Below, piece after piece: positions 41,187 through 62,641 of a DNA stretch of 64,000 nucleotides (its first letter is position 1; every line of letters begins with the position of its first letter). The DNA comes from a virus (Duplodnaviria > Heunggongvirae > Uroviricota > Caudoviricetes): positions 41,352 through 105,351 of the IMG/VR virus record IMGVR_UViG_3300031555_005503; one strand, 5' to 3'. The translations under genes and the position numbers were made by a program. The notes beneath the pieces were generated by a model. It was not told the origin of the DNA. It saw only the letters and a program-made list of their open reading frames with translations, and did not search any database.

Positions 41187-41743
41187 AATAATTCTTCCTC
41201 ACTTAAGAATTTTGAAATATCGGTATTCTTTTGATTTTGAGAAATGTTAGTTTCTGAATTTAACGCTTTAACAGTTAATGTTTCTTGCAATGTATCTTTT
41301 GAGATCTTTTCTCTTGTATATTGCTGTATCTTTTTCTTTGCATCAAATTCCTTTTTCACTTCATATGCATGTGATTTTATTATGGCAAAAATATATTTAC
41401 ATTTAGCATTAGAGTCCTTAAATTCTTTATTGCTTATAGCATATATAATATTTTCATAATATCTTTTTACAGTTTCTAAGATCACAGAATATGAATACCC
41501 TTGTAGTTTTTTTAAGTTATATGGCGTAAGTGAGCTATATTCTAAAGAAGGATCATATCCGAGAAAATCTTCATCAATAATTGCTTTAACCTTATTGTAT
41601 GCATCTACCTCGGCCCGATACTCTTTATAAATCTCTTCTGATTTAAAATACCCTTCAGTTTCACTACGGTAAAACTCATCCATATATCCTTGTTCGCCTG
41701 TTGCCTTACATTTTGTTAGCCTATGTGGTATTTTTCTTGCCAT
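41183..41743 (-). CDS. hypothetical protein
   Basis: 186-aa ORF with overlapping stop/start. Confidence 0.4.
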   Translation of the reverse strand: MARKIPHRLTKCKATGEQGYMDEFYRSETEGYFKSEEIYKEYRAEVDAYNKVKAIIDEDFLGYDPSLEYSSLTPYNLKKLQGYSYSVILETVKRYYENIIYAISNKEFKDSNAKCKYIFAIIKSHAYEVKKEFDAKKKIQQYTREKISKDTLQETLTVKALNSETNISQNQKNTDISKFLSEEELL

Positions 41744-51625: not shown

Positions 51626-51901
51626 CTACGCGCCTCCTTTTACAATCCTGATGGCATCATACAAAGACAAACTACAGTATGATGAATATTCGCCCTTGTC
51701 CATAGCAAACTGTGTTTCCGTTATACCTAATGTTTTTATTGACTCTTGTGTTAACCGCTCCACAACACCGTCCACATCATAGCTTGTTGGCTCATCTTTT
51801 ATGTTTTGAATAAGCACATCTATAGGTATTACTAAACCCTTTTCTTCTAAGCCATCATATAATGACAACAAAGATTTTCTGCTAATTAAATCGTTATTCA
51901 T
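51626..51901 (-). CDS. hypothetical protein
   Basis: 91-aa ORF. The C-terminal AIRIVKGGA encodes the SD sequence for the lar gene. Confidence 0.4.
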   Translation of the reverse strand: MNNDLISRKSLLSLYDGLEEKGLVIPIDVLIQNIKDEPTSYDVDGVVERLTQESIKTLGITETQFAMDKGEYSSYCSLSLYDAIRIVKGGA

Positions 51902-52437
51902 TTTGTACCTTTTAACCTTTTTAAAACATCATTAAAAATATTAATATAACCCTCAATGCACCCATCTTGATATTCAAATTCAATATCATTTTCCTCAAGC
52001 ATTGATACAATTTGTTCTGTAATTATTGCACTTTCTTCTTCAGTTTGATTACGACCAATTGGGTTATATGGTTTAACACGATTTAAAACATAATTAAAAT
52101 TTTCATATGAATTGAAAACATTTAATATCGTTTGATTAAAAATATCTCCAAGAATTGGACTACTATTATAAATAGAACTTAATAAAAGTGGTGAATCAGT
52201 GATAATTACATCTACTTGATCTGCACAGCGACTCATTTTATAATATTGCTTGCCAAATATATAAGCTTGATTGTTTAAGGCAGTGAAATTAGATTCCCAT
52301 GTTTTATCTTTAGCAAATTCTGTAACAAGCTCAGCATTTATCCCATGCATTTTAAGCATTGAAAATATGTAAGCTGCACCGGTAGATTTGCCAGTTCCTG
52401 GACCACCAAAAAGATTTACTACTATCACTTTGTTCAT
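51898..52437 (-). CDS. P-loop NTPase / nucleoside-nucleotide kinase-like protein
   Basis: Walker A NLFGGPGTGKST. Small kinase-like size. Confidence 0.45.
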   Translation of the reverse strand: MNKVIVVNLFGGPGTGKSTGAAYIFSMLKMHGINAELVTEFAKDKTWESNFTALNNQAYIFGKQYYKMSRCADQVDVIITDSPLLLSSIYNSSPILGDIFNQTILNVFNSYENFNYVLNRVKPYNPIGRNQTEEESAIITEQIVSMLEENDIEFEYQDGCIEGYINIFNDVLKRLKGTK

Positions 52438-53581: not shown

Positions 53582-54067
53582 TTAAACCTCCATTTGCAGA
53601 ATACGTTTAGCGGTTTTAATGTGCTTTTCCTCCAAACCTTTTCTTTCAGATGTTTGAAGTAAATGTGATGAACATGGGCGAATCCATTTTCCATCTATAT
53701 CATCTATAACTACATATCCATCAACTTCCTCATGATCATCAAGATACGCTTTAATTTCATCTCCTCGACGCCTCATAAATCTATCAAATATTGGAGTCTT
53801 TCCATATAACTCAATACCGAATTCTCCTAATTTATTACGAAGCTCAATAAAATCTTTAGCAAATTCAGTTTTCTTCATACCAACATCAAGATGTTTCCAA
53901 CCCATTCGCCAAGTTGAAGAAAGAACCACTTTTGCATCGGTTTGGTCAATAAGTTGTTTGAGAATTTTTATATTTTTTTCTTCAACAAATATTGATCCAG
54001 TAGATGTCAATTCTTTTGTATAATAAGTATTAAGAACGCCATCGATATCAAGAAAAATTATCTTCAT
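53582..54067 (-). CDS. HAD-superfamily phosphatase
   Basis: Motif I FLDIDGVLN. Later VVIDDIDG. Confidence 0.55.
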   Translation of the reverse strand: MKIIFLDIDGVLNTYYTKELTSTGSIFVEEKNIKILKQLIDQTDAKVVLSSTWRMGWKHLDVGMKKTEFAKDFIELRNKLGEFGIELYGKTPIFDRFMRRRGDEIKAYLDDHEEVDGYVVIDDIDGKWIRPCSSHLLQTSERKGLEEKHIKTAKRILQMEV

Positions 54068-55585: not shown

Positions 55586-56716
55586 TTACTTTCTATACCT
55601 AAATTTTGGCATTGGCAATAATTTAAATAGATTCTTCTTATGTAATTCATCTATTCTTTCTTTTACTTCAGGATCATCACAAATACCTTCCCTAATGTAT
55701 TTATCTAATACTTTATATGTAAAACCTAAATTGTCTTCATCAGTTTTCCCACTAAGACCATCTGCAGGTGTCTTTTCAATAAATTCTTTAGGAAGTCCAA
55801 GAGAATATCCTAATGTCTTAACCTCTTGTACGGTCAAATTTGATAATGGGCTAAAGTCGCCGGCCATATCGCCGTATCTTGTGGAATATCCAACCCAGTC
55901 TTCAGACAGGTTGCATGTATTGGCAACTCTGCCATTCATACTTTGAGAAACTCCATAAAGAACAGCCATCCTAAGTCTTGGCGGCAAATTAATAATCGTT
56001 TGTTCGCTAAGACGATCACAACAATCATCAATTTGAGTAATAGCATTATCAAACATTCGACTAATATCTATCGTACAATAATTAATTCCTAAGTGATTAC
56101 ATAAATTGTAGGAAACATCGATGTCGCTTTGTTTACCGTTAGGCATCAGTACGCCAAAAACTCTTTCCTTGCCAAGAGCTTCAACACAGAGAGCCGCAAC
56201 TACCGAACTGTCTTTGCCTCCAGAAATACCTACTATTGCATTGCATCCTTTACCGTTTTCTTCAAACCAGTCTCTGATCCACTGAACACAATCGTTTTTA
56301 ATTGGTTCAATTTCTTTAATATGTTCTTCGGCTTCAATCTCATCAATTAATTCGCATAGCATATCATATACAAGTGGTAAACCACCTCTATCATCAATAT
56401 AGACATTAGCATAAGTCTTTCTACCTTTAACAGGTACTGAACTATCGCAATTAATTCCTTCATATTTAATGTTATGTTCATTAAGATAAGCCTGAATTTT
56501 AGGATATTCGCTTTCTCCATTACCTGTTAATATAATTACTTCAGATCTACTTTCCCATCTATGAAGAAGTTCAATGATATTATTAAATGTCTTTCCTGTG
56601 CCATGGAAATCATATAACGTATCATCAAAATCCACACAAAATATTAATTTACCATGCTGAAGATATTCATCTTTTAATCTTTTATAGCAATTTTTTACTT
56701 CTAAATACCAATCCAT
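55586..56716 (-). CDS. nadE: NAD+ synthetase (NadE, PP-loop) fused to an N-terminal HAD-like domain
   Basis: C-terminal NAIVGISGGKDSSVVAALCVEALG, the NadE PP-loop. N-terminal ~130 aa carry HAD motif I FCVDFDDTL. Confidence 0.65.
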   Translation of the reverse strand: MDWYLEVKNCYKRLKDEYLQHGKLIFCVDFDDTLYDFHGTGKTFNNIIELLHRWESRSEVIILTGNGESEYPKIQAYLNEHNIKYEGINCDSSVPVKGRKTYANVYIDDRGGLPLVYDMLCELIDEIEAEEHIKEIEPIKNDCVQWIRDWFEENGKGCNAIVGISGGKDSSVVAALCVEALGKERVFGVLMPNGKQSDIDVSYNLCNHLGINYCTIDISRMFDNAITQIDDCCDRLSEQTIINLPPRLRMAVLYGVSQSMNGRVANTCNLSEDWVGYSTRYGDMAGDFSPLSNLTVQEVKTLGYSLGLPKEFIEKTPADGLSGKTDEDNLGFTYKVLDKYIREGICDDPEVKERIDELHKKNLFKLLPMPKFRYRK

Positions 56717-58182
56717 TAGAATTCTCCTCTGTGTAAAATATCTCTAATTTCAGCTAATGTATAATTTTTTAATAATACTCCATCTTTAAATACTGGTTGC
56801 AGTAAATTTCCTTCTGGAATAGTAGAGCTAGTATATTCGTCTTTATACTTTAACCCTCCGCTTTCTTTATACACATAGCATAATCCCTTCTGAGACTTCT
56901 TAAATCCGCCTTCTTTTGGATTTTTGAAAATAGGATATTCTTTACCATCTACTTCTGCATAACATGCTTTAATACAAGAACTAAATGTATCTCTAGTAAA
57001 CGGCTTTAATTCCCCATCTTCTTCAATACAATGCATTGAGAAAGAACCTACTCCAAGTGCCACATTACTTGCAGCAAATCCATTTTGCATCAGAATTTCA
57101 TATATTCGCTCTGCTCTTTGAACTGTAATTGAATCACCGTAAATAGCTTTTACATGTGGATCCAGTACTTTATAGCCTTTGCTATTTAAAGTGCCACCAA
57201 ACTGTTCCCACAGCTTAAATACTGTCTGAGTTACTACTTCTACACAGTCACCAGAATCACCTCTCATAAGCATACATCCATTATGAGCCATGATTTCATC
57301 ATGAATCTTAGGCAAAATATTATCAATTACGTTCCAGTAATCATAGCTATCAAGTACACATGAGAAACTTGTGTTAGGATATAATTCAGTCAATAACTTT
57401 CTCAGGAAAGTTTCTTCATCTCCATCTATTGCATAATTGCTACACATTACAAAATGCTCACTACTTACAGCTCCAAATGCAACCTCTTCTTTTTCACAAT
57501 CACAATTATACATTTTTTCAAGATACGGAATTACTGGCACTGTTGCAGTGTTTACAAATGATAGACACCATCCGGATCCTGCTTTGAGTGCAGCATCAAG
57601 ACCCATATCACCTCTAAAGTCGAAGCTACCCAAAGCTTTTCTTCTTGGAGTATCTTCATCGCACGTCATATCATAATATTTATTTACAACATCACGATAC
57701 GTCTTACCTACTGTTGCAGTGATCATTGGATACCAAAGCTCTGCACTAATTAAAGATTCAAGTGCTTGCGGCAACCAAGCAAAATCATCATGAGTATTTG
57801 TAATACCAAACATAGGTACCTTCATTGGAACCATTGTTCCTTCTGGAAGCGCTGTAATTTCAATTGGCAAATACCCAAGATGATGCAGTTTTATAATTTT
57901 TTCGATATCATATACACCTTCACCAAGCGTATTATCAAGAACTCTTTTATATTCAGCGATTACTTCATCTTCTGGCCTTTCAAAAAAATTATCTCTAAAG
58001 TGATCAATAAGATAAGTTTTGCAAAATGCTTGTAATCCAAACATTACAACTTTATCCCATCTATTCACTCTACTCATTCGCGGCGTAAAGTAGGATACAG
58101 ATTTTGTCATACCCGGATTAAGCATTTCTGCATGAACTGCTTTGTAAAAATCACATAATAATAATGAATTCATTTCGTGCAT
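56716..58182 (-). CDS. nicotinamide phosphoribosyltransferase family (NadV/Nampt-like; candidate Namat of NARP1)
   Basis: N-terminal LLLCDFYKAVH. Length 488 aa. Nampt-like core. Start overlaps the stop of the Prs-like gene. Confidence 0.7.
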   Translation of the reverse strand: MHEMNSLLLCDFYKAVHAEMLNPGMTKSVSYFTPRMSRVNRWDKVVMFGLQAFCKTYLIDHFRDNFFERPEDEVIAEYKRVLDNTLGEGVYDIEKIIKLHHLGYLPIEITALPEGTMVPMKVPMFGITNTHDDFAWLPQALESLISAELWYPMITATVGKTYRDVVNKYYDMTCDEDTPRRKALGSFDFRGDMGLDAALKAGSGWCLSFVNTATVPVIPYLEKMYNCDCEKEEVAFGAVSSEHFVMCSNYAIDGDEETFLRKLLTELYPNTSFSCVLDSYDYWNVIDNILPKIHDEIMAHNGCMLMRGDSGDCVEVVTQTVFKLWEQFGGTLNSKGYKVLDPHVKAIYGDSITVQRAERIYEILMQNGFAASNVALGVGSFSMHCIEEDGELKPFTRDTFSSCIKACYAEVDGKEYPIFKNPKEGGFKKSQKGLCYVYKESGGLKYKDEYTSSTIPEGNLLQPVFKDGVLLKNYTLAEIRDILHRGEF

Positions 58183-58979
58183 TACAATACCTCCTCTATA
58201 CGCATTGTATTAATCTTTTCATGTGATGAATGAAAAAGACTATCTGTGGTCCAAACACTTTTTATAAGATCTCCTTTTAATAGCTCACCTTGATGAATTG
58301 TATCTTCGCAATGAGTTACATATAGATGAACATCTTTTGCCCCAAGCTCTTTAAGCTTTTTTGCTGCAAAATAAAAAGTTCCTCCACGGGAACAAATATC
58401 ATCTATTATAAGAATGTTTTTATTTTTTATTAACTCAGCATCTCCGGCAATATTCAGCCCAAGAATTTTTCCTGTATCCCATTGCCTTTCCTTTACCCCA
58501 AAAGCATATGGTAATTTTGCCATACCACTATAACGTTTCATTGCACCTTCATCTGGAAAAAATAATGAATCTACATAAACTTGATCTAATACTTTGTTTA
58601 TAAATAGCTCTGGAGTTTTCACACATATATTATCAATTAACGCCTCGCTTACAGAAGAATGTGGATCTAATACTGATACATAATCAAAATTGAGGCTATT
58701 AATAATATTTGCAAAAAATTTTAAAGTGAAAACTTCATCATCATGTTTTACTCTATCCATGCGAGCGTTTGGAATGTACGGCATTTTCAATTGGATATTT
58801 GAACAACGAAGTTTATCTAAATGTTTCTTTACGTAGATAAGCGTTATTAATTCTTCTTCACGTTCATATAACCATGTTATAGTAGCATCAGTTCTGAAAA
58901 TCGTTGTTGGCATTTTTATATTTTGTGTACCATCGGGAAAACGATCTACGATTACTTGTGCTCCATCTACTTTTATCAT
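58182..58979 (-). CDS. ribose-phosphate pyrophosphokinase family (Prs-like; candidate ADP-ribose pyrophosphokinase Adps)
   Basis: PRPP-binding motif NILIIDDICSRGGTFYFAAKKL. Confidence 0.65.
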   Translation of the reverse strand: MIKVDGAQVIVDRFPDGTQNIKMPTTIFRTDATITWLYEREEELITLIYVKKHLDKLRCSNIQLKMPYIPNARMDRVKHDDEVFTLKFFANIINSLNFDYVSVLDPHSSVSEALIDNICVKTPELFINKVLDQVYVDSLFFPDEGAMKRYSGMAKLPYAFGVKERQWDTGKILGLNIAGDAELIKNKNILIIDDICSRGGTFYFAAKKLKELGAKDVHLYVTHCEDTIHQGELLKGDLIKSVWTTDSLFHSSHEKINTMRIEEVL

Positions 58980-61945: not shown

Positions 61946-62641
61946 TTATTTTAGCTCCTCTATATTTTTATACATGAATTTAATTTTATCTATATTTTTA
62001 TCCGTATGATAATGTCCACAATACCATTTTTCATAATCCAGCTTTTCTTCCAAAGTTCCAAGCCATTCTTCAGTAGATTTATCTACTTTGGTTTGATCAA
62101 TACCAGGTAAAAATACTTCTACAGGTTCATATTTTAATGGACAGGTATGAGTCAAGATGCCGTCGAATTTCCAATTGGCAAAATTACATGTCTGTTCCAC
62201 ATATGATTTAATTTCATCTGACGGCTGTTCATTATCCCACCAATTACCTCTACCCATTAATCTATATTGTTTATCAACGCTATATGCTCCGCCAATGACA
62301 AGATATGCTTTACCATTTAATTTAAACACTTCTCCATCATCTGCAAAGAGTATATTAGGATAATCTTCTTCATACCATACTATTCCGCCATTAAAAACTT
62401 TTGTCTGATATGATGCAATTTCATAAGGTCTTTGTTCGTGATTTCCATGAATACATAATAATGTAATTGGAATATCATCTTGAATCATACTTTTAATTTG
62501 TTTATCTTTATAATCCATAAAATAATTGATACCTGCATCTCCCAAGATAATCATCACATCATCTTTTGTCGTTCCATTTTCATAACAAAATGTTTCGATC
62601 TCATGAAAATATCCATGCGTATCACCAGTTATATAAACCAT
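61946..62641 (-). CDS. metallophosphoesterase (Ser/Thr phosphatase-like)
   Basis: GDTHG, GDAG..Y and GNHE motifs. Confidence 0.65.
   Translation of the reverse strand: MVYITGDTHGYFHEIETFCYENGTTKDDVMIILGDAGINYFMDYKDKQIKSMIQDDIPITLLCIHGNHEQRPYEIASYQTKVFNGGIVWYEEDYPNILFADDGEVFKLNGKAYLVIGGAYSVDKQYRLMGRGNWWDNEQPSDEIKSYVEQTCNFANWKFDGILTHTCPLKYEPVEVFLPGIDQTKVDKSTEEWLGTLEEKLDYEKWYCGHYHTDKNIDKIKFMYKNIEELK

Follow-up and report, generated by a model that had tools for sequence, protein, structure and literature searches.

A HAD-like domain fused to NAD+ synthetase beside predicted NARP1 genes in a tailed phage: a candidate deamidated route of NAD+ reconstitution

Why would a tailed gut phage join a phosphatase-like domain to an NAD+ synthetase, and what might the joined protein do beside other genes of nicotinamide adenine dinucleotide (NAD+) metabolism? 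The question is raised by an IMG/VR virus record (IMGVR_UViG_3300031555_005503; Caudoviricetes), of which a stretch of 64,000 nucleotides was analysed (positions 41,352 to 105,351 of the record; hereafter ‘the window’). An open reading frame (ORF) on the minus strand, 55586–56716, combines an N-terminal HAD-like domain with the NAD+ synthetase NadE, and closes a cassette of four tightly packed ORFs on the same strand in the order nicotinamidase-like, Adps-like, Namat-like and HAD::NadE. Few anti-phage strategies of bacteria are as common as NAD+ depletion, against which NARP1 is the chief phage counter-measure known. In NARP1, Adps and Namat rebuild NAD+ from ADP-ribose (ADPR) and nicotinamide after defence NADases have acted (Osterman et al., 2024, bioRxiv 10.1101/2024.02.11.579819). 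Here we find that the ORF encodes a genuine two-domain protein, and we favour, with about even confidence, the view that it ends an extended, anti-defence NARP1 operon that would make NAD+ by a deamidated route through nicotinic acid adenine dinucleotide (NaAD), with the HAD-like domain feeding ADPR into the pathway.

The ORF runs without interruption from an ATG start, with no internal stops, and its start overlaps the stop of the upstream gene as TAATG. It encodes a small capless HAD-fold domain followed by a complete NH3-type NadE, much as the initial annotation had described it (a HAD-like N-terminus and a complete PP-loop NadE in one ORF beside NAD genes). In the synthetase half, residues 141–364 match PF02540 NAD_synthase (E = 1.4e-53; 182 bits against a cut-off of 21), the nadE model TIGR00552 scores 182.4 bits against a cut-off of 63.65, and the PHROG family annotated ‘NAD synthetase’ covers residues 134–373. 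Both curated models thus score above cut-off, the PP-loop has the SGGxDS form, and a Pfam scan of the fused ORF finds no glutaminase (CN-hydrolase) domain, the sole other domain being the HAD-like one. Stand-alone NadE-length proteins, Bacillota-named NadE among them, are 67–79% identical to this domain: a Lentihominibacter NadE cluster (P0047) shares 67% identity over the whole domain as well as the intact PP-loop, and other Bacillota NadE clusters share 68–70%. The window protein differs from these in its N-terminal HAD-like fusion and in being phage-encoded, within a predicted anti-defence operon. Two relatives of the NadE domain with a similar overall length (P0057 and P0110, ~380 amino acids (aa)) owe their extra part to an unrelated C-terminal extension of ~130 aa, not to a HAD domain.

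The N-terminal domain was placed by its motifs and predicted fold. Four HAD motifs, D29-x-D31-x-T33, T/S64, K100 and D108-D109 (then R110), are kept down to 29% identity in an alignment of stand-alone homologues of ~135 aa (62–71% identity) with proteins of Phage Phass-1, Bacillus phage Nemo and crAss cr126_1 (29–36%); the motif II residue is T64 in the window but Ser in Phass-1, while D29, D31 and T33 do not vary in alignments A1 and A2 and reach 90% conservation or more in A4. The full-length AlphaFold2 (AF2) model (predicted local distance difference test 82.6) gives a confident HAD domain with a Rossmannoid core (block means 83–95 over residues 11–130), joined to NadE by one continuous helix, residues 113–154. 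A first, HAD-only AF2 model, the one used for fold searches, is poor at residues 94–110, a stretch that the full-length model resolves. With Foldseek, nothing in the PDB was significant, and the best match among viral models was a ‘HAD-like domain containing protein’ (E = 3.3e-5, TM 0.69). Sequence comparison was less productive: the window domain has no Pfam match even at E 10, and neither single-sequence nor profile searches matched it to PDB sequences, such that the domain scan proposed by the initial annotation recovered the NadE half through PF02540 and the HAD half through no Pfam model. Weak Pfam matches do occur among 150 diverse representatives of the family (Hydrolase_3 in 14, Hydrolase in four, HAD_2 in two), although no curated sequence model matches the window domain above threshold. 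Residues 1–135 do match phrog_1238 (E = 2.9e-18), but its label, ‘phosphoheptose isomerase’, is wrong, and the family is a divergent, uncurated branch of the HAD proteins; a profile search of 1.84 billion representatives gave 854 members, mostly of 130–150 aa. Given the four motifs, the AF2 model and the viral-model fold match, the HAD fold assumed at the outset holds up, also in the structure prediction that the initial annotation had called for, and we accept the domain as a divergent, capless HAD-type phosphatase whose catalysis is predicted. Small capless HADs such as 1xpj, phage AfhF (9iqw), GmhB and the phosphatase domain of T4 Pnk share with it the fold, a length of ~120–140 aa, the DxDxT motif and the lack of a cap, but they are at most 23% identical, show no sequence-level family membership and act in sugar activation or end healing, whereas the context here is NAD reconstitution.

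Is the fusion itself authentic? A frameshift, in sequencing or assembly, could in principle have joined two real genes, as most relatives carry NadE in the +1 frame over the end of the HAD gene, where a single-base indel would fuse them. Against this, seven or more 90%-identity clusters (54–100% identity), drawn from independent samples, share the fused form, with linkers of varied length and sequence; it is found in the full-length relatives P0002–P0007 (54–70% identity), again with differing linkers, in three more distant, 50%-level representatives (P0242, P0321, P0374) and on an independent contig (L007). The junction in the window has no homopolymer run, nor is there a Met near it that could start NadE separately, the NadE start Met having been lost. 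An artefact is therefore rejected, its probability being close to negligible, and the sequencing split into two ORFs against which the initial annotation had cautioned is not what the recurrence across independent samples reveals. The same annotation knew of no characterised fusion of this kind, and none turned up in the literature.

Among the 43 related loci that carry both genes, HAD and NadE are separate in 42 and fused only in L007. In the split loci NadE is usually offset to the +1 frame and begins before the HAD gene has ended, and the split state with the same gene order is seen in Phass-1 and in L002–L006. The fusion is thus a rare, late, lineage-specific merger of two overlapping, translationally coupled neighbours, which would have arisen through loss of the stop and of the frame offset between the overlapping genes. 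With 42 of 43 loci split, the fusion alone gives no argument for a phosphatase chemically coupled to amidation, and it need not entail substrate channelling between the two domains.

What, then, does the HAD family travel with? Its company was counted in 80 viral loci encoding a member (28–71% identity), which are partly redundant and fall into 25 clusters when dereplicated at 60% identity. An Adps-like or a Namat-like gene, or both, is found no more than 6 kb from the HAD gene in 71 of the 80 loci and in 20 of the 25 clusters, directly adjacent in 15 of these clusters, while 44 of the 80 loci have no NadE. The order varies (Adps-HAD-Namat, Namat-HAD-Adps or Adps-Namat-HAD), with HAD between the other two in many loci: Bacillus phage Nemo has Prs-like, Nampt-like and HAD genes and lacks NadE, and crAss cr126_1 has Nampt-like, HAD and Prs-like genes. 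Fusions follow the same company in part: P0269, in which Adps is joined to HAD, matches the window Adps at 43% identity over the full length. Four members are joined to NDT-like domains, and a Zeta-toxin-like kinase and one RyR domain (the fold seen in RyDEP, the enzyme that supplies ADPR to NARP1) also occur as partners, although the RyR-bearing member was not found among the 40 long members scanned. Because the family adjoins Adps and Namat, mostly where NadE is lacking, it belongs, as an accessory, with the NARP1 core (Adps and Namat) and not with NadE. In L044 (6001–9957) the order is HAD-PncA-Adps-Namat-NadE, with HAD and NadE at opposite ends, such that their adjacency is not obligatory. 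Phass-1 (L001; OQ749652, ‘code 15 clade’) carries the same five-gene cassette flanked by a tRNA gene cluster, and its HAD of 139 aa and its NadE, which has 307 aa including a long C-terminal tail, are both annotated as hypothetical proteins.

The genes around the fusion suggest that the ‘NAD module’ of the window is NARP1 with additional genes. The HAD::NadE, Nampt-like (here Namat-like) and Prs-like (Adps-like) ORFs overlap pairwise as TAATG, and a gap of 4 nt separates the Prs-like gene from the isochorismatase-fold gene upstream of it. The Namat-like protein is far closer to SPbetaL1 Namat (PDB 9W5X/9W5W; E = 4e-114) than to true NAMPT (~1e-44), and its catalytic His and the equivalents of R306 and of the clamp residues R40 and F392 align with SPbetaL1 Namat, the Y396 equivalent being ambiguous owing to a 9-residue insertion. 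The Adps-like protein scores below the TIGR01251 cut-off, and its residues 8–257 align to residues 35–288 of the 317-aa PRPS 1dkr, ending before the PRPS C-terminal module, as expected for Adps, which is PRPS-like without the C-terminal alpha11–alpha12 module (PMC13586617); its assignment to Adps as opposed to PRPS rests on length, context and phrog_619. The nicotinamidase-like protein has an isochorismatase fold and finds its best PDB match in the Pyrococcus horikoshii nicotinamidase 1ilw, in an alignment that keeps VVDMQxDF, with the catalytic Asp, D52-x-H54, H71 and the motif of the catalytic Cys; D52, H54 and H71 we take, from what is known of PncA, to be the metal ligands. The NCBIfam PncA model scores it far below cut-off, and its homologue in Phass-1 is annotated as nicotinamidase.

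Adjacent, overlapping Adps and Namat genes and a Namat-type enzyme with aligned clamp residues are thus shared with NARP1. Where SPbetaL1 Namat has its nicotinamide-binding Asp215, the window enzyme has Ala213, on which account we count the cassette as a NARP1 variant and not as a plain member, and nicotinamidase, HAD-like phosphatase and NadE are added to it. Two add-ons to NARP1 are already recognised: in NARP1-AP (Adps, Macro-domain Adpp and Namat), Adpp converts ADPR-1''-phosphate to ADPR (bioRxiv 10.64898/2026.01.28.702374), and RyDEP, a RyR-domain glycosidase, converts cyclic ADPR to ADPR that feeds NARP1. The window resembles NARP1-AP in having a phosphatase gene within or beside the operon, and the HAD gene often sits between Adps and Namat, like Adpp. 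However, the fold is HAD here and Macro there, and a Pfam scan of the four cassette ORFs finds no Macro domain, so that the HAD protein, with its putative substrate, is at most a non-homologous analogue. The NARP1 papers searched mention none of HAD protein, nicotinamidase and NadE, and we found no mention of NARP1 with nicotinamidase or NadE in a literature search of incomplete coverage.

The three additions are not independent of one another. With identity above 35% counted as presence, 36 of the 80 viral loci have NadE, and a nicotinamidase-like gene accompanies it in all 31 whose upstream region is on the contig (in the other five the contig ends within ~2 kb upstream of the HAD gene); among NadE-negative loci nicotinamidase is found in just one, L057. 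The same division runs through the pyridine pocket of the Namat-like enzyme. Asp215 of SPbetaL1 Namat hydrogen-bonds nicotinamide, and D215A lowers NAD+ formation 8.1-fold (PMC12774641); its equivalent in human NAMPT, Asp219, defines substrate specificity, which D219S switches. The window enzyme reads N-T-A-T where the references read G-T-D-T. In the 76 loci where the column could be read (from all fetched sources, including Phass-1, L002–L007, Nemo and crAss cr126_1), it is Ala (26) or Ser (15) in all 41 NadE-positive loci and Asp (26) or Glu (9) in all 35 NadE-negative ones, and the preceding Gly has become Asn, Lys or Arg in the NadE-linked enzymes. A quick, midpoint-rooted neighbour-joining tree places all NadE-linked Namat-like enzymes in one deep clade of three sub-lineages, which leads us to reject repeated convergence; the Ala/Ser change appears to be one ancient event kept alongside nicotinamidase and NadE over 30–85% identity. 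The initial annotation had taken NadE for a third, separate route to NAD, which does not fit its strict association with nicotinamidase and the Asp-less clade. That NadE, nicotinamidase and the altered Namat always occur together instead points to one integrated pathway via NaAD.

How would such a pathway run? Host NADase defence would cleave NAD+ to ADPR and nicotinamide, as is known for NARP1; by homology, the phage nicotinamidase would then turn nicotinamide into nicotinic acid, and Adps would pyrophosphorylate ADPR to ADP-ribose pyrophosphate (ADPR-PP). From its residue change and from operon logic (a nicotinamidase would starve a nicotinamide-dependent Namat, which supports the nicotinic-acid route), the Ala213 enzyme may join ADPR-PP and nicotinic acid to form NaAD, and the NadE domain, on strong homology, would amidate NaAD to NAD+. 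The HAD domain, by association, would most likely dephosphorylate some phosphorylated form of ADPR, thereby supplying ADPR to Adps. We suggest an ADPR-returning phosphatase because both known NARP1 add-ons yield ADPR and because the HAD gene occupies the same kind of place as Adpp; our best guess at the substrate is ADPR-1''-phosphate, formed by RES-type phosphorolysis of NAD+ or when ADPR-PP breaks down, in which case the HAD domain would play the role that the unrelated Macro-domain Adpp has in NARP1-AP. The HAD substrate is the weakest step of the scheme. Of the phosphatase substrates proposed in the initial annotation, phosphorylated ADPR is the one now favoured, while nicotinic acid mononucleotide (NaMN) or nicotinamide mononucleotide (NMN) is not, as their dephosphorylation would oppose NAD+ synthesis.

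Several points weigh against this scheme. Every catalytic assignment in the cassette is by homology or context, and the NaAD route costs the phage an extra ATP without evident reason. As D219A abolishes the activity of human NAMPT, Ala213 need not signify a change of substrate to nicotinic acid, and the single clade means that the perfect correlation of Ala/Ser with NadE reflects one ancestral event, not convergence. As for the HAD domain, the proteins closest to it in structure have sugar bisphosphates or nucleic-acid ends as substrates and not ADPR derivatives, and we know of no HAD-type ADPR-1''-phosphatase. In nine of the 80 HAD loci NARP1 genes are absent from the surrounding 6 kb, and no consistent alternative partner was seen there. 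Macro domains are absent from the matches listed in Pfam censuses of ORFs neighbouring related cassettes, where weak ones are possible.

Other explanations deserve consideration. The initial annotation had seen in the fusion a hint that the phosphatase is coupled to amidation. On such a reading HAD might act on NaMN, NMN or a substrate or product of NadE and the fusion would serve channelling, and the continuous predicted helix between the domains, the recurrence of HAD-NadE fusions in several clusters and the gene overlap in split loci would all be in keeping with this. We nonetheless judge it improbable, as the split state is the normal one, HAD genes lacking NadE (44 of 80 loci) adjoin Adps or Namat instead, L044 has HAD at the cassette end opposite NadE, Adps and unrelated domains are likewise found as its fusion partners, and removal of phosphate from NaMN or NMN would run against NAD+ synthesis. 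Alternatively, the cassette might be a canonical, nicotinamide-using NARP1 with a separate boost to the host Preiss-Handler route (PncB/NadD), the Ala/Ser change being neutral or otherwise caused. Preiss-Handler salvage, by established pathway knowledge, starts with nicotinamidase and ends with NadE, and the identity of the NadE domain to Bacillota clusters (67% for P0047, 68–70% for others) suggests recent acquisition from hosts. However, a nicotinamidase in the operon would compete for substrate with a nicotinamide-dependent Namat, an enzyme which D215A impairs 8.1-fold; the amide-binding Asp is replaced in 41 of 41 NadE-linked Namat-like proteins and in none of 35 others; and the cassette encodes neither PncB nor NadD. 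On balance we consider such a boost rather unlikely.

The HAD domain might, on the other hand, help to restore NAD+ by other means than the ADPR supply proposed above: it could remove the 2'-phosphate of NADP(H) or 2'-phospho-ADPR, pull the Namat and NadE reactions forward by cleaving pyrophosphate, or clear, as a nucleotidase, NMN or NaMN formed by residual phosphoribosyl pyrophosphate activity of Namat. Both precedents for a NARP1 add-on, Adpp and RyDEP, yield ADPR, hosts are already rich in pyrophosphatase, as is generally known, and no variant has direct evidence, yet together they make up a minority possibility that we take seriously. It is, by comparison, very improbable that the domain is a Pnk-type 3'-phosphatase of nucleic-acid end healing, unrelated to NAD and near NAD genes by chance, since its adjacency to Adps or Namat is kept across Bacillus, crAss-like and gut Bacillota phages despite shuffled gene order, including positions between the two genes, and since fusions to Adps and to NadE exist.

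Beyond the Macro-domain phosphatase and the RyR-domain glycosidase recognised so far, the locus points to two more elaborations of NARP1. One is a HAD-fold accessory, predicted to be a phosphatase, that occurs with NARP1 in many phage lineages and is now annotated ‘phosphoheptose isomerase’ or ‘hypothetical’; the other is a Namat-like clade with an altered pyridine pocket, always found with nicotinamidase and NadE, which would imply NAD+ synthesis via NaAD. That both hold as proposed, with a Namat-derived enzyme making NaAD for phage NadE and the HAD family serving as a second, non-homologous feeder of phosphorylated ADPR, found widely among Bacillus phages, crAss-like phages and gut phages of Bacillota, is a tentative and on the whole doubtful claim. 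If true, however, nicotinate ADP-ribose transferase would count as a new enzyme activity and several hundred phage protein clusters would have their annotation corrected; it would also hint at ways in which hosts may push back, among them the removal of nicotinamide and NAD+ cleavage to non-canonical products.

Table 1. Positions in the window of the HAD::NadE ORF, its domains and motifs, and the neighbouring cassette genes (functions predicted).
Feature	Position	Strand	Remarks
Fused HAD-like::NadE ORF	55586..56716	−	376 aa plus stop; last gene of cassette
HAD-like capless domain, predicted phosphatase, aa 1–135	56312..56716	−	phrog_1238 family
HAD motif I, D29-F-D31-D-T33 (putative nucleophile and general acid/base Asp)	56618..56632	−	within FCVDFDDTL, residues 26–34
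HAD motif II, T64	56522–56536	−	
HAD motif III, K100	56411–56425	−	
HAD motif IV, I-D108-D109-R-G-G	56381..56398	−	
Fusion junction (EEHIKEIEPIKND)	56291..56329	−	junction alignment A3; AF2 secondary structure; predicted within one continuous helix, residues 113–154
NH3-type NAD+ synthetase (NadE) domain, aa 136–376	55589..56311	−	PF02540, TIGR00552
PP-loop SGGKDS, residues 165–170, in NadE domain	56207–56224	−	
Namat-like ADPR-PP transferase (putative), 488 aa	56716..58182	−	PDB 9W5X/9W5W match
Ala213 of Namat-like protein, at position of nicotinamide-amide-binding Asp	57544–57546	−	
Adps-like PRPS-fold enzyme (putative), 265 aa, short C-terminus	58182..58979	−	phrog_619, E 9.3e-71
Nicotinamidase-like isochorismatase-fold protein, 201 aa	58984..59589	−	PF00857, E 7.7e-20

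Residues ~192–200 of the Adps-like protein read DDICSRGGT, and the Adps-HAD fusion P0269 reads DDICSKGGT, where the canonical ribose-5-phosphate loop of PRPS is DD-x-x-D-T-A-G-T. For the published Adps, Asp216, Ala218 and Ala219 are cited in this loop (PMC13586617). To judge from the residues, an Adps clade with the DDICSRGGT-type loop may bind its donor differently.

Other genes in the window may also be of interest. About 1.5 kb downstream of the cassette, 53582–54067 (minus strand) encodes a second, unrelated HAD protein of 161 aa that matches PF18143 HAD_SAK_2 (E = 2.1e-26), a ‘HAD domain in Swiss Army Knife RNA repair proteins’. At 51898–52437 (minus strand) lies the gene for a 179-aa P-loop protein with a match to PF13521 AAA_28 (E = 9e-7), and a homologous gene is found just upstream of the cassette in L007 (3757–4293). 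The AAA_28 family includes NadR-type nicotinamide-riboside kinase domains, and the protein could be a further NAD-salvage component. On the other side of the cassette, a 231-aa ORF (61946–62641, minus strand) has in its translation, by eye, the motifs GDTHG, GDAG and HGNHE, typical of calcineurin-like metallophosphoesterases.

Related cassettes have recurrent neighbours of their own. RNA-repair genes (RtcB, RlaP, Thg1 and RNA ligase) are frequent near them, and beside some of those in L010–L089 lie genes for NADAR (E = 6.8e-27), an ADP-ribosylglycohydrolase (E = 1.1e-15) and NDT-like proteins (PF15891, two neighbours). An SPFH/Band_7 gene lies just downstream of the HAD-containing NARP1 cassette in L002–L006 (9572–11032), L009 (6396–7187) and L083 (7358–8185), a recurrence that spans unrelated phage groups, namely gut Bacillota phages and crAss-like phages.

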